A stretch of DNA of 63,015 nt, the filler included, from Reclinomonas americana ATCC 50394 (taxonomy: Eukaryota), in assembly GCA_048213135.1 (NCBI GenBank). It is 8 parts of 3 records of this genome, joined end to end, with 100 filler letters (N's around TTAATTAATTAA, not from the genome) between each part and the next. Parts side by side here need not be neighbours in the genome. Positions count along the whole stretch, not along the records: positions 1 to 15,390 come from PS015073.1; 7 more parts are not named here. One strand, written 5' to 3'. Shown here one piece after another: positions 5,012 to 14,005 of the stretch; position 1 is the first letter of the stretch, and each line of letters starts with the position of its first letter. A program made the position numbers and the translations under genes. The notes below the pieces were generated by a model. The model saw only the letters and a program-made list of their open reading frames with translations, was not told the origin of the DNA and did not search any database.

Positions 5012-8000
5012 CTACAAACTGAGGTAGTACATTTCACGCGACTGGCGCTCCAAGACCGAGCCGATCCGGCTGCCAACCATCTCCATGTCACGAACAACGC
5101 AATGAAACCGCTGATAGTCGACAACGACGCACCGTTCAACCTTCTCGGCTTCAAAATGGTTGCCTCGCGAACGGAGTGCAGACGCCAAGATGTGCCGACT
5201 GGACACAGCGTTTGGATGGTCGACTCCACGAATCCGCTCATTGTCGACCACCACATGCCGCTGCATCTGCTCCGCCTCAGCATATTCGCCAAGTGAACAG
5301 AGTGTCATCGCCAACTTGCCGCGGCTAGCGATGGTGTCCGGATGGTTGACTCCAAATATCCGTCCACGGTCGGCCACCGCACGCCGCTGAATCTGCTCCG
5401 CCTCTGCATATTTGCCGACTGCGTGGAGCGTCGATGCCAGGTTGCCGCGACTGGTGACGGTCTCTGGATGGTTGCGGCCAAGAATCCGCTCACTGTTGGC
5501 GACGACACGCCGCGCGATCACCTCCGCCTCGACAAACTTGCCGAGCGAAGAGAGTGTCATCGCCAGGCTTTGGCTGCTGGCAATGGCGTCTGGATGATCG
5601 ACCCCTAGGATTCGCTCATAATCGGCCACCACACGCCTCTGAATCTTCTCCGCCTCGGCGTACTTGCCAAGCGAGTGGAGAGTTGACGCCAAGTGAGCAC
5701 GACTGGTGATGGTGTCTGGATGGTCCAAGCCAAGGATCCGCTCACGATCGAAAACCACACGCCGTCCTATCCTCTCGGCTTCGGCATACTTGCCAAGACC
5801 GTTAAGCGTCGACGCCAATATGTGACGACTGCCGATAGACTCTGGGTGGTCCACTCCGAGTATTCGCTCACGATCGGCCACCACACGTCGTTCAATTTCC
5901 TCGGCCTCGGCATACTTACCAAGTGCATTTAGCGTCGACGCCAACTTGTCGCGGCTGGTCATCGTGTCAGGATGATTGACACCAAGAAGCCACTCGTGAT
6001 CGGCCACCATACGTCGCTCAATCTCCTCCGCTTCGGCATATTTGCCGAGTAGCAGGTATGTTAACGCCAAGCTGTGGCGACTGTTGACTGCGTCTGGATG
6101 GTCGACACCCAGAAGACGCTCACGATCGACCACCACGCGCCACTGACTGTCCTCGGCCTCAGAATGCTTGCCAAGCACGTGTAGAACCGCAGTGAGCTTC
6201 TCCCTCGCCCTCAGTGCCAAGAGCATGTAAACTCGAGCCTCCACTGTAGGAATAGGCTTGATTCAGCGCAAGAGCTTCAGAAGCACAACATGCGTGCCAC
6301 GATTCACCACGACCGCTGGCAGCACGCTCGTTAACATCGACAATCGCACGCAGAATACTGTGCGCTTCTTCTGCGGCCGCAATGCTCCTCTGTAGAGCAC
6401 GGAATGAACGATCAGTCGCAGATTGACCAATAATCATCAAAACAGCAGGCGCAACTGGGATGGGATCTTTCCAAGATTGCTGAATGCCGAGAAACACGAG
6501 CAGCACAGATCGAGGAATCCCTGTAACAGAACACATCAGTAAAGTCGATAAGAGTACAGCAGAACACGCGATCCAACTGCAGACCATCGACGGCACTCAA
6601 GTGCTGATTGATCTTCTGAGTCAGTGCCGCGAGTGCAGGATTCTGTGTCATGTCGCCTGCTGGGCAGTGAAGGTGAACAGACTGAACAGACATAAACAAT
6701 GAGAGAATATACATCCCACCTTTCGTTGACGTCACCAAGTCGACAAATGGCCCAAGAATCTCCAGAACATCCAACGATTTCTGTGCCTCCTCTCCGGACA
6801 GCCGTTCTCGCACCTCTGTGGATTGAAAAATACGGTTCAGGCACGAACATTGGTGCTGCTGTCGGTCAAGTACATGTGTGCGAGACACGGACCATTCCAC
6901 AGCCCTCGCAAGCAGTCTTGGAGTGCGGCTTGAAGTCGTGCACGTTGCTGTTCATCCACACGAGGCATGATCGTGTCAAACACATTGCCAAGAGCCGCCA
7001 CCACATTGTCCACCGTCACGCATTCTGCTTGAACTGGCAATGAGAGAATGGACAATGCCACGACAACTGCTTGCAGCAAAACACTCACCGTCGCTTGGCT
7101 GCAACGCTACACGCAGCAAGCGATCTGTTCTGTCGACGAACTTCGCATCATTCCAACCAAGCATTGAACGAAACGGGGCTGGCGGCGGGTGCACATTGTG
7201 AGAAGCACAGACGGGGGTGCCAAGTCAGGAATATGAATGCTCACCATTGTATCGCGGTGAGTCGTAAAAACGATCGATAGAGTGCGATTGGCGGGGTGGC
7301 AAGTCGTGTTCCACAGTGTTGGGCAACTCCAGGCTACGACGCAGACCAACCCACTGTGCCACTCGAACAGAGAGGTCATCGGAATTCGAATACGTGTGTA
7401 CGAATCCTTTGTGGTGCTGAGTTGCTTTGCTTGCTGTATTCCAGAGAGGCACGCCTCGCCGGGTTGCGCTCTGATGTTCGGCGTTTGAGATAAACCCAAC
7501 GAAAAAGTATGCAGTGAACAACAAACCTCGCTATCGTCGGAGGCCACCCAGGAAGCCGGTACTGGAATGGTGGCAAACAAATACGCGTTCATTGGGAGCC
7601 GCGCGCTCTTGGCCAGCTCGCTGTGCATCAACCAAGCACTCTGGTCCTCGACATGAGCGCAGAGCAAGGGAATACGCGGCACGAAAACGACAAAGAGACG
7701 CACAATGGCAGAGCCAAGGCCGTGTCCGTGCACACTGACGCGATACGGCTTGAATGCTGCGTCTGGTCCGTGACTGGCTTGATATGACGGCGCCACGACA
7801 TCGAGGGCGTATCGCAGAGCCTCCTTGGCGGCCTCGAACTGCCAAGGGACAACACCGAAGAAGGCAAATCCGAGTGCCAGCTTGATGTGGGTCCAGAGAT
7901 CCGTCAACTTGGTGAAACGCGTTCCCGCGATGCACAAGTTGATCTCACGATTTTCGCGATCAACCTGCACACAAAGAAGCAATATCGTGATGGGGTGAGA

Positions 8001-9264
8001 GAGCAGGTCAAGTGGCAAAAGGGGAAGGGGGGAGGGACGAGGAAGGATGTAGAGCAGAGTGAAGAGCAATGAAGGACAGGGAGCAGAGCAATGCAGAGCA
8101 TAGAGTGCAGGAGCAACGCAGAGTCGAGTGCAGGAGCAATGCAGAGCAGAGAGTGCAGCAATGAAGAGCAGAGTCAGTGCAGCAATGCAGAGCAGAGTGT
8201 AGAGCAATGCAGAGCAGAGCGCAGGAGCAATGCAGAGCAGAGCGCAGGAGCAATGCAGAGAAGAGCGCAGGAGCAATGCAGAGAAGAGCGCAGGAGCAAT
8301 GCAGAGCAGAGCGCAGAGCAATGAAGAGCAGAGCGACGGAGCAACGCAGAGCAGAGCGAAGAGCAAGAAAGTGCAGAGCGGAGAGCAATGAAGAGCAGAG
8401 CGGAGAGCAATGAAGAGCAGAGCGGAGAGCAATGCAGAGCAGAGTGAAGCAGAGAAAGAGCAGAGCGAAGAGCAATGCAGGCATTACAACGCATCTCGAG
8501 CACGCAACGACAATGACGTAGGTCTCCTGTGCATCCACCACTTCCAAGCTCCGCAGACGACGCTTGAGGCTGTAGGGACAATCATAGGCCATCTTGCGCA
8601 ACATCTCTCGCGCAGCGGCAATGCGTCCCTCCGCAGTCGCCAGCGCGACCGGCTTTCCCGTGTACTCGTTCACGGAGTACGCCAACATCGCGAGCGCGGC
8701 ATGGTAGCACTTCATCTCAGTGAGTGCAGAGACCAGGCTCTGTTCCGCGATGCAGATGCGTTGATCAATGGACTCCCGGATGGCCGAGGCAAGCTCGCCT
8801 TTGTTGTTAACGGCGATCATTGGAGACGGGCGGATGAGCGACAACGGCGGAGGGTGTGGTGGTGGGTGTGGAGTGTGGAGGGGGAGTGGAAGTCGTGAAG
8901 GGGGGGAGGGTGGGACTCGGTGTTGGGCGATGGTGGATTCGGTGAGGTGGATGAGGGTGGGGGAGGCCTGGAGGGGGGGGGGAGGGGAGGAGAGAGGGGG
9001 GAGGAGAGAGGGGGAGAGGGGGAGGGAAGGAGGGAGAGTGTGAGAGAGAGAGGCATGATTTCGCTGAGTTGCCACCAACACATGATGGTAAGAGGGAGGA
9101 AGCGAGCAACGAAGAGACGTGCTATGCGTTTTCTTCGCCGGCGCGAGTGCAAGCACACGCGCGTATTACATAAACGTGTGTGTCACGTGAATAAAACTCA
9201 CCAAGAGCCCGCCGACGCCGAGCAGCACTCTGCCACTCCAGTGGCGTCGCAGCTGGTGTAGCAT
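5012..9264 (-). CDS. Lipase_3-like (pseudo-enzyme) + TPR-array protein, paralog A; about 11 exons
   Basis: Spliced model: MLHQLRRHWSGRVLLGVGGLL|ASPTLIHL..., lipase motifs LCIAGTR, DLWTH, VHGHGLG, YSNSDD, a helical linker, then one exon with ~8.5 42-aa KLC-type TPRs (LGKYAEAEEIxRRVVADRERILGVDHPDT). Exon structure is collinear with paralog B. Confidence 0.85.
8050..8480. repeat. Intronic minisatellite (GCAGAGCA / GAGCAATGCA units)
   Basis: Degenerate tandem units inside the intron 7965-8508 of paralog A. Confidence 0.9.
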
Positions 9265-9651
9265 GCGTGCAGTGAGGTCTTTATGTCGACACAATCCAAC
9301 GAAAGAAAGTACGTAATATAAGGCCGATAATGAGATTGTCCTGCGGACGACTTGGGAGGCGGGCTTGTTGCGCGTCGCAACTGTCATCACTGGCTGCCAT
9401 GGAGGCACACTTCCAGCTGCTCGTCTCGCGTCGTTATGAGAAGATCATGATCATCCTGACGTCGAGGTTTGATACCAACAAGTTACTCCTGACTCGTTCC
9501 CAGCAACCCACGTGTGTATCACTTCGCCTCCTCCCTCTACTTCCCTACTGGAAATTGCAAAAGTTATTGGATTCACTGATCTGCTCACAAAGAGTCTTTC
9601 TAGTGCACGTCGTGTGTTGTTTCGTCTTTGCTCACGGTCAGCAGCCACACG

Positions 9652-12777: not shown

Positions 12778-12875
<98 letters not shown>

Positions 12876-14005
12876 CGATGCACGGCAGACCTCACTTGCG
12901 TCGGCGTCACCGTCCACCCACCCAGGAGGCACCGGAATAGTGGCAAACAAATACGCATTCACTGGGAGCTTTGCGCGCTTGGCCAGCTCGCTGTGCTTCA
13001 ACCAAGCACACTGTAATGGAAACAAGTTCACAAGATAAGCAAGGAGTACTAGACAAAATGCGACACAGCAGCACCAGCGAGACGCACAATGGCTGAACCG
13101 AGACTGTGTCCGTGCACACTGACGCGATATGGCTTGAATTCTGCGTCTTCTGGTCCGTGACTGTCTTGGTACTTCCCCGCCAACTCAAGTGCGTATCGAA
13201 GCGCCTCTTTGGCTGTCTCAAACTGCCACGGAACGGTGCCGAAAAACGACAATCCGAGACCAACCTTGACGTCGGTCCACAGATCTGTGAGCTTGGGGAG
13301 CCGTGTTCCCGCAATGCACAGGTTGATCTCCCGGTTCTCGCGATCCACCTGTGCATAATATGGTCATATGAGAAGCTCAAGTTCCACTTGACGACAAGAA
13401 CAATACGCAACAGCGATGACGTAGGTCTCCTGTGCGTCCACCACTTGAAGGCGACGCAGTCTGCTCCTGGTACTCACTGTTGGGCATTTGTCGGCCAGCA
13501 TCAGCAGCTTTTTTCGAGCAGCAGCTATACGATTCTGTGGCGTTGCGACATCGTCCGTTCGCCCGTACTCGTGAACGGCATACGCAAGGGAAGCCAGCTG
13601 ACCACGATAGTTCTTCATCTCAGTCAGCGCGGAGACACAGCCCTCGTGAATGATCGCGATGCGCTGGTCGATAGACTCCGTCACCGCCGCCGCAAGATCT
13701 GCTTGATTGCTGATTGCTCGCACACGCGCGACGGGAGCCAGGCCATGGCCGGCGCCATGTGCCGCCGGCTCCGGCTGTTGCAGTTCACGATCAATGTTAA
13801 CTCGCGCAGGCGGTGCAGGCGGACCTCGGAGTTTGTCGATCACTGCCTCTGCGACATGAACAAGGCCAACAGAAATCTTCACAAGCGAGTGAGCTCACAG
13901 CGTGTGATGACGACATTGTTCGAATGGGGTATGGAAGAAACGCACCGCAAGTCCACCTAAGCCGAGCAGCAGTTTTCCTCCCCATTTGCACAGCTGCTGT
14001 GCCAT
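9652..14005 (-). CDS. Lipase_3 (GHSLG) + TPR-array protein, paralog B
   Basis: MAQQLCKWGGKLLLGLGGLA|ISVGLVHV..., LCIAGTR, DLWTD, VHGHSLG, YSNADD, GEHA, then a single exon of 13 full 126-bp TPR units (about 9652-11386). Confidence 0.88.

Follow-up and report, generated by a model that had tools for sequence, protein, structure and literature searches.

The stretch of 63,015 nucleotides analysed here (hereafter the window), which is eukaryotic nuclear DNA of Reclinomonas americana ATCC 50394 (NCBI GenBank assembly GCA_048213135.1) containing 26 runs of N, encodes on its minus strand, between positions 14005 and 5012, two tandem genes that are predicted to join a class-3-lipase-like head to a long array of tetratricopeptide repeats (TPR) without a nucleoside triphosphatase (NTPase) domain between the two. 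According to the predicted gene models, the same five-part order holds in both proteins, namely a hydrophobic N-terminus, a helical stalk, the lipase-like head, a linker and the TPR array. The two genes are best explained as old tandem paralogues, so far found only in this lineage. The reading preferred here, which is put forward tentatively, is that they encode a ligand-directed lipase that would work without a nucleotide switch, probably in biotic conflict, the upstream copy (gene 2) being catalytic and the downstream copy (gene 1) a dead partner or regulator.

Gene models, repeat arrays and age of the pair

Exon borders were placed by reading the minus strand in three frames together with the DNA itself and were then checked by script. 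Pfam scans, structure predictions and remote searches of the head and the linker were run exon by exon, and local profiles were used otherwise. The predicted models and the features placed on them are the following:

14005-9652, minus strand: gene 2 (upstream copy), 12 exons, 1145 amino acids, predicted model
14005-13946, 13876-13412, 13348-13067, 13010-12891, 12645-12420, 12355-12275, minus strand: gene 2 exons 1-6
12177-12046, 11973-11884, 11803-11738, 11676-11588, 11532-11439, 11384-9652, minus strand: gene 2 exons 7-12
9264-5012, minus strand: gene 1 (downstream copy), 11 exons, 996 amino acids, predicted model
9264-9202, 8967-8509, 7964-7683, 7640-7527, 7470-7245, 7178-7089, minus strand: gene 1 exons 1-6
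7033-6893, 6815-6720, 6659-6585, 6520-6308, 6243-5012, minus strand: gene 1 exons 7-11
13783..14005, minus strand: N-terminus of gene 2 (about residues 1-50), with a basic start, an apolar run, AEA and then a proline/alanine-rich stretch
13412..13729, minus strand: helical stalk of gene 2 (about residues 70-165), predicted with AlphaFold2; gene 1 equivalent at 8509-8817
12420..13348, minus strand: class-3-lipase-like head of gene 2 (exons 3-5), with a GHSLG elbow whose serine codon, AGT, is at 13105-13103
7245..7964, minus strand: lipase-like head of gene 1 (exons 3-5), with a GHGLG elbow whose glycine codon, GGC, is at 7721-7719
11439..12355, minus strand: linker of gene 2 (exons 6-11, about residues 382-570); gene 1 equivalent at 7178-6308 (exons 6-10)
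9652..11384, minus strand: TPR exon of gene 2, with 13 units of 42 amino acids and a 17-amino-acid tail, ending at the stop codon
5012..6243, minus strand: TPR exon of gene 1, with 8 clear units, a degenerate ninth and a short tail

After predicted GT-AG splicing each gene gives one complete frame, with no internal stop in the 996 codons of gene 1 or in the 1145 codons of gene 2. In brief, (i) all 21 introns over both genes are of the GT-AG type (11/11 in gene 2, 10/10 in gene 1) and 20 of them end in a CAG acceptor (10/10 in gene 1), (ii) ten introns occupy matching positions in the protein alignment of the two copies, with phases (0,0,0,0,1,1,1,1,1,1), gene 2 having one intron more than the other copy, and (iii) the coding blocks upstream of the TPR stretches share 65-82% nucleotide identity between copies, the intervening sequence being unalignable. 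The model starts (14005 and 9264) and stops (9652 and 5012) agree with the limits 5012..14005 given in the original prediction, an earlier note made from this DNA, and the N-terminal peptide quoted there, LLLGLGGLAISVGLV, arises only from the joining of the first two exons of gene 2. The intron-dense N-terminal half followed by a single long TPR exon, also described at that time, is found again, with N-terminal exons of 60-465 nt and TPR exons of 1232 nt (gene 1) and 1733 nt (gene 2).

Most introns are short (42-97 nt in 18 of the 21). In gene 2 the range is 54-97 nt with a single exception, intron 4, whose 245 nt include an (AC)47 run and a 20-N assembly gap at 12705-12724; the other two long introns are one of 234 nt with a polypyrimidine tract and one of 544 nt with a 22-nt repeat in 19 copies. 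This last repeat fills intron 2 of gene 1 (19.3 copies, at 8047-8480) and generates stop-free frames, including open reading frames (ORFs) of 458 and 385 amino acids, which an ORF finder could misread as coding. In gene 1, furthermore, "intron 3" (7682-7641, 42 nt) is possibly coding, because it is in frame and stop-free, and an in-frame ATG near 9384 offers an alternative upstream start.

That the lipase and TPR exons belong to one gene had been part of the original prediction, and for each copy this is supported by the frame-consistent splicing of the models and by the ten introns of the same position and phase. The opposite explanation, according to which the lipase-like exons are transcribed apart from the TPR exon, or at least one copy is a decaying pseudogene, is very unlikely. 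It can draw on splicing that is predicted from sequence, on donor sites that are degenerate beyond GT, on the methionine found at the seventh residue of the gene 1 TPR exon and on the missing catalytic serine of gene 1; against it stand the absence of stops in 996 + 1145 spliced codons, the matching introns, a ratio of non-synonymous to synonymous substitution rates (dN/dS) of 0.2-0.4 in every segment, linker included, and the TPR exon of gene 2, whose first 511 residues contain no methionine, so that it is hardly a gene by itself.

The repeat arrays belong to the TPR_10 and TPR_12 families (Pfam PF13374 and PF13424), both genes exceeding the gathering cut-off of 27.5 bits and showing a 42-residue tandem period. 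Indeed, the exon ORF of gene 2 (9652-11427, minus strand) matches TPR_10 with an E-value of 1.7e-155 (501.7 bits, 12 stretches) and TPR_12 with an E-value of 1.9e-118, and the exon ORF of gene 1 (5012-6262, minus strand) matches TPR_10 with an E-value of 2.6e-90 (294.6 bits, 8 stretches). Tandem Repeats Finder reported a period of 126 nt, with 7.6 copies in gene 1 and 13.5 copies in gene 2. The count of 8.5 versus 13.5 units of 42 amino acids made in the original prediction is confirmed by these matches, whereas its statement that the units are highly self-similar applies to some of them only: mean pairwise identity between units is moderate (46% in gene 1, 55% in gene 2), but units 2, 3, 4 and 7 of gene 2 share 86-93% nucleotide identity. 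These near-identical units, together with a 378-nt higher-order repeat present in 3.4 copies, indicate that the array of gene 2 was reshaped recently. Across the 21 units compared, variability is highest at positions 5, 22 and 40, with a ratio of non-synonymous to synonymous differences per site (pN/pS) of 1.0-1.2, and positions 37, 40/41, 2 and 5 have the spacing of one helix face, which is suggestive of a variable face on the repeats.

The two copies are 54% identical over 569 aligned codons of the N-terminal half, with a synonymous divergence (dS) of about 1.2-1.3. Over the same codons dN/dS is 0.29; taken by segment, it amounts to 0.35 for the N-terminal segment, to 0.20 for both the stalk (58% identical between paralogues) and the head, and to 0.42 for the linker. 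A dS of this size with dN/dS well under 1 implies an old duplication in which both copies have stayed constrained. The fusion of a repeat exon to a lipase gene that had been suggested found no support: the GC content at third codon positions (GC3) of the TPR exons, 0.64, is near the 0.57-0.62 measured over the remainder of each gene and gives no compositional sign of a recent foreign repeat exon, and a degenerate first TPR-like unit crosses the last intron of gene 1.

Lipase-like head, linker and absence of an NTPase

A class-3-lipase-like fold is likely for the head, judging from several matches that are weak and all concordant. In brief, these include: Pfam Lipase_3 (PF01764), with E-values of 0.006-0.012, in single exons and over the elbow only (16-17 bits, cut-off 22); NCBIfam Rlip_lipase, with an E-value of 1.6e-4 over residues 2-90 of exon 3 (89 of its 94 residues) and a score below the family cut-off (20.8 bits against 440); NCBIfam XopAP, with an E-value of 0.009 on the gene 2 head, far below the family cut-off; and a profile search of the PDB, which returned three matches only, all of them lipases (E-values of 0.37-1.8), one of which aligns over profile positions 1-95, a span that takes in both the GT...D motif and GHSLG. 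Furthermore, a search of a protein atlas with language-model features, made with positions 7527-7964 of gene 1, scored 0.91 at best, and all of the top ten matches with an assigned family carry the Lipase_3/Mbeg1/DUF676 set, with 164 features in common where 170 are typical of true family members. As in class-3 lipases (Rlip_lipase, XopAP and Lipase_3/Mbeg1-like proteins), a beta-strand-GT...D motif and GHSLG stand at the expected spacing in the head; unlike in these families, the scores remain far below the cut-offs and the Asp/His region is unmatched. To our knowledge, no fusion to TPR has been reported for the Rlip_lipase, XopAP or Lipase_3-type families.

The GxSxG elbow that characterises Lipase_3 is present in gene 2, as GHSLG at residue 255, and absent from gene 1, where GHGLG at residue 254 has glycine in place of serine, which means that the nucleophile serine has been lost. 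Candidate aspartate (SN-A/S-DD) and histidine (VEHD) residues are conserved in exon 5 of both copies and could complete a catalytic triad. The Lipase_3-type domain attributed to both genes in the original prediction is accordingly kept in part: the concordance of the weak lipase matches speaks for it, and the sub-threshold Pfam score and the lack of serine in gene 1 speak against it.

Beyond these families, the head found no real relative. A HMMER search with the head profile against 1.84 billion protein representatives returned one match (P0001, 675 amino acids), which consists of about ten copies of a 62-residue unit and looks like a translated tandem repeat; its E-value of 3.2e-8 is spurious because it sums ten weak stretches. 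The same protein, accompanied by weak helical noise only, was returned by phmmer with the spliced head and linker against 121 proteins, and none of 439 candidates reached E <= 0.001 in a word-indexed protein search with the head exons of gene 1, restricted to longer proteins. DNA-seeded scans confirmed none of 376 stretches in a first set of metagenome contigs and none of 37 in prokaryote genome contigs. One of 65 was confirmed in a second scan of metagenome contigs and one of 68 in viral contigs; both were rejected, as the ORF of the former (L001) has the seed motif only and looks unrelated, and the latter (L002) is an off-frame match across a capsid-like gene. No conserved orthologue was found among the 1.84 billion representatives, an outcome in favour of the original prediction.

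The linker, of about 180 amino acids, has no recognisable domain, and a Pfam scan of its exons returned nothing of note. No GK[ST], and hence no Walker A motif, occurs anywhere in either spliced protein. Profiles were built from TPR relatives for NB-ARC (78 sequences), for DUF7779 (37 sequences) and for the whole pre-TPR module (88 sequences); all scored at most 7 bits on both proteins, inside the TPR array only, and none matched the linker. Because Walker A is missing and the linker is unmatched by the profiles of relatives of the NOD-like receptor (NLR) type, both proteins are predicted to be NTPase-less, in agreement with the earlier observation of no visible P-loop and with no cryptic NB-ARC or NACHT domain in the linker. 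A derivation of the linker from degenerate TPR was considered and set aside: a hidden Markov model of the genes' own TPR units matches only residues 567-581 of gene 1, weakly, and these residues belong to the degenerate first TPR-like unit that spans the last intron. PADLOC, run on five exon pieces, gave no match.

Relatives of the repeat array and comparison with known systems

Unlike the head, the TPR exon has many relatives, since 4499 of 8000 scored proteins pass E <= 1e-10. Of these 4499, the best 120 are at most 45% identical to it and are fungal proteins of NLR type or bacterial proteins. Walker A (GxxxxGK[ST]) is present in 78 of the best 120 and missing in 42, and Pfam lists give NB-ARC for 39 of the 120. 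Among the 42 proteins without Walker A, the same lists show a CHAT domain in 25 and a kinase domain in 7; Lipase_3 is listed for none of the 120. Proteins combining an effector with TPR and no NTPase are therefore numerous (42/120), and lacking an NTPase is in itself already known and not unique to the pair described here.

Three fungal proteins among these relatives have lipid-hydrolase heads, and in each an NTPase is present or there is room for one: (i) P0005 has PGAP1/Abhydrolase_6, then NB-ARC (363-561, Walker A at 377), then TPR, (ii) in P0065 Patatin is followed by a Walker A at 404, DUF7779 and TPR, and (iii) in P0081 a DUF676-like match, which at 19.2 bits stays just short of the 20.3 cut-off, precedes a gap of 450 residues without canonical Walker A, with DUF7779 and TPR after it. 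P0005 and P0081 are examples of the fungal NLRs with lipase-type heads, proteins to which the TPR exon is up to 45% identical. Podospora Pa_2_10340 is given as an example of a fungal NLR composed of a sesB-like alpha/beta hydrolase, NB-ARC and TPR, and repeat-number polymorphism is described for such NLRs, in an excerpt of Dyrka et al. 2014 (PMC4986451). Like both genes here, the fungal sesB-like NLRs have a lipid-hydrolase-type head N-terminal to a 42-residue TPR_10/TPR_12 array, with a variable number of repeats and internally conserved units. However, fungal NLRs carry NB-ARC or NACHT between head and repeats, which both genes here lack, and have no N-terminal hydrophobic segment. Moreover, two profiles of fungal PGAP1/DUF676/sesB-type heads, seeded with P0005 and P0081, did not match the head in what is a small test of 8 sequences each. 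As no NTPase is present and the head family differs, the two genes are not NLRs.

Two other kinds of proteins come close to the pair. CHAT-TPR and kinase-TPR proteins, mostly bacterial, likewise have an enzymatic head immediately followed, without a P-loop, by a long TPR_10/12 array, but they are prokaryotic or metagenomic, intronless and without a listed Lipase_3, and their functions are largely putative. In plants, EDS1, PAD4 and SAG101 combine a class-3-lipase-like domain with a helical domain, the paralogues cooperate, and catalysis is dispensable or lost in some of them. By analogy, this mixture of dead and active members may parallel the Ser/Gly pair found here; in contrast, the plant proteins have neither a TPR array nor an N-terminal hydrophobic segment. 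The EP domain gave no match in an exon-wise Pfam scan at E-values up to 5, a weak test on exons of 29-70 amino acids.

Full-text literature searches found no description of a eukaryotic lipase-TPR protein without NTPase, which is not proof that none is in print. What is new, on the predicted models, is a eukaryotic, intron-rich, lipase-headed version of this architecture, whose head is without close relatives and in which a putatively active copy stands beside a copy without nucleophile.

Proposed working, rival functions and neighbouring genes

Receptors of immune type that combine an effector head, an NTPase switch and a repeat sensor are found in animals, plants, fungi and bacteria; versions without the switch are common in sequence data and barely studied. 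If the pair is a ligand-directed lipase, as preferred here, a protein or a peptide would be bound by the TPR solenoid through its variable face, and this binding would place or release the lipase head at a membrane, where lipids would be cut. Control without a nucleotide switch could be achieved by direct tethering, by relief of auto-inhibition or by clustering on a multivalent target. The setting would probably be biotic conflict, in defence or in attack, with gene 2 as the catalytic form and gene 1 as a non-catalytic partner, regulator or decoy, and the pair could in that case have an immune role. This reading is favoured by the closest TPR relatives (best 120), fungal and bacterial proteins that are NLR-like or of the effector-TPR kind, and by the repeat number, which differs between copies (8.5 vs 13.5), together with the turnover of the array in gene 2.

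Several points weigh against this interpretation. Concerning the head, all lipase matches stay under the curated cut-offs of their families, exon 5, with the candidate aspartate and histidine, has no PDB match and atlas scores of at most 0.85 with unrelated families, and the AlphaFold2 model of the head piece, with a predicted local distance difference test score (pLDDT) of 47, is unusable. Concerning the evolution of the pair, an old duplication under purifying selection is unlike the fast turnover typical of receptor families, and only two copies are visible, with no further copy inside the window. Concerning the repeats, the non-synonymous excess per site is small and based on 21 units, and exposed positions vary in any solenoid. 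Finally, the N-terminus may route the whole protein to the secretory pathway, which would be ill-suited to a cytosolic sensor.

This N-terminus had originally been described as a membrane anchor, but a cleavable signal peptide would fit it at least as well. The apolar run has 15 residues in gene 2, where it is split by intron 1, and 10-15 residues after a basic start in gene 1; a single-pass signal anchor would be expected to have about 20. Kyte-Doolittle hydropathy, taken over 19 residues, peaks at 1.81 (residue 12) for gene 2 and at 1.36 for gene 1. A small-x-small motif stands at the same aligned position in both copies (AEA in gene 2, TES in gene 1) and may be read as a cleavage site under the -3/-1 rule for signal peptidase sites. 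The proline-rich linker reported after the N-terminus is present in gene 1 (33% of residues 30-75), but in gene 2 the enrichment is weak (15%). The stalk that follows, of about 105 residues before the head, was modelled by AlphaFold2 from an alignment of the two paralogues as three helices (at 2-55, 62-80 and 85-105 of the piece, mean pLDDT 70), the first of which would be about 54 residues long.

With such an N-terminus, the proteins could instead be secreted, lysosomal or phagosomal lipases with a cleavable signal peptide, acting in digestion or in the attack of prey, with TPRs that bind a substrate or a surface or that self-assemble. This explanation, which is possible though doubtful, is consistent with the short uninterrupted apolar runs, with the hydropathy maxima, with the motif placed alike in both copies and with the weak NCBIfam matches, which are to secreted bacterial lipases. 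It fits less well with the closest TPR relatives, as the 78 of 120 with Walker A, and most of the others with their CHAT or kinase heads, have architectures of cytosolic type; the long helical stalk right after the hydrophobic segment, furthermore, also fits a membrane tether. If the proteins are secreted lipases, their TPR arrays would work outside the cytosol, which is unusual.

A function without any role in conflict is also conceivable, namely that of a housekeeping enzyme which remodels lipids at an organelle membrane and uses the repeats as a scaffold, like human SERAC1, in which a lipase domain is combined with helical repeats. The purifying selection on both copies would agree with it. 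The sesB-type lipase domain also occurs in SERAC1, a phospholipid-remodelling protein, according to an excerpt of Dyrka et al. 2014 (PMC4986451). In addition, a phospholipase B-like gene (PF04916 exons at 17986-19864, plus strand, E-values of 2.1e-20 and 8.7e-10) lies about 4 kb from gene 2 in window coordinates, a closeness that may be coincidental. However, a head without real relatives among the 1.84 billion representatives does not belong to a conserved housekeeping family, the nucleophile is lost in one copy, the number of repeats and the turnover of units differ between copies, and the alpha/beta-hydrolase profiles made from fungal NLR heads do not match the head. A housekeeping role is therefore unlikely.

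A bolder form of the preferred reading, the ligand-directed lipase, is more speculative still and distinctly improbable: by analogy, the pair might be a nucleotide-independent counterpart of NLRs in an unsampled eukaryotic lineage, in which a catalytic and a dead lipase-TPR protein would together sense and execute or regulate, the capture of a ligand by a fast-changing TPR face triggering lipolysis at the membrane directly, without an ATP-driven switch. Such a pairing would resemble the logic of EDS1-PAD4/SAG101 in plants. Provided that the two genes are expressed as modelled, they would offer a straightforward way of asking if an enzyme can be controlled by a repeat sensor when no nucleotide is hydrolysed, and would show the use of catalytically dead paralogues.

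The window also contains a second duplicated pair of repeat arrays, made of two tandem single-exon WD40 ORFs at 33671-34783 and 35149-36378 (both minus strand; 370 and 409 amino acids). Each matches WD40 in 7 stretches (E-values of 3.1e-73 and 3.3e-83) and has highly self-similar blades; a glutamate-rich C-terminal tail and an upstream leader are common to the two. Protein kinase exons (36421-37227, minus strand; Pkinase E-values of 2.7e-10 for the C-lobe and 4.3e-5 for the middle part) are found immediately upstream of the second of these ORFs, which starts at 36378; if kinase and WD40 array form one gene, it would be another enzyme-plus-repeat protein without NTPase. A stop-free stretch of 481 amino acids at 26918-28363 (plus strand) matches LRR_6 (E = 2.5e-7) and LRR_4 (E = 4.1e-7) weakly, and no further domain was found in it.

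Further exons in the window encode THOC2 (40988-49092, minus strand), with matches to Tho2, Thoc2 and THOC2_N, and the N-terminal part of Integrator subunit 7 (53392-54015, minus strand, E = 4.5e-29). A THOC2 exon of 277 amino acids, searched against a collection of 5.8 billion sequences, had a single match, a mollusc THOC2 with 35% identity over 34% of the query, and the source lineage seems to be unsampled in this collection. Lastly, the runs of N comprise seven pairs of 44-N runs with 12 bases between the two members (for example 15391-15434 and 15447-15490) and several runs of 20 N, a pattern that looks like an artefact.

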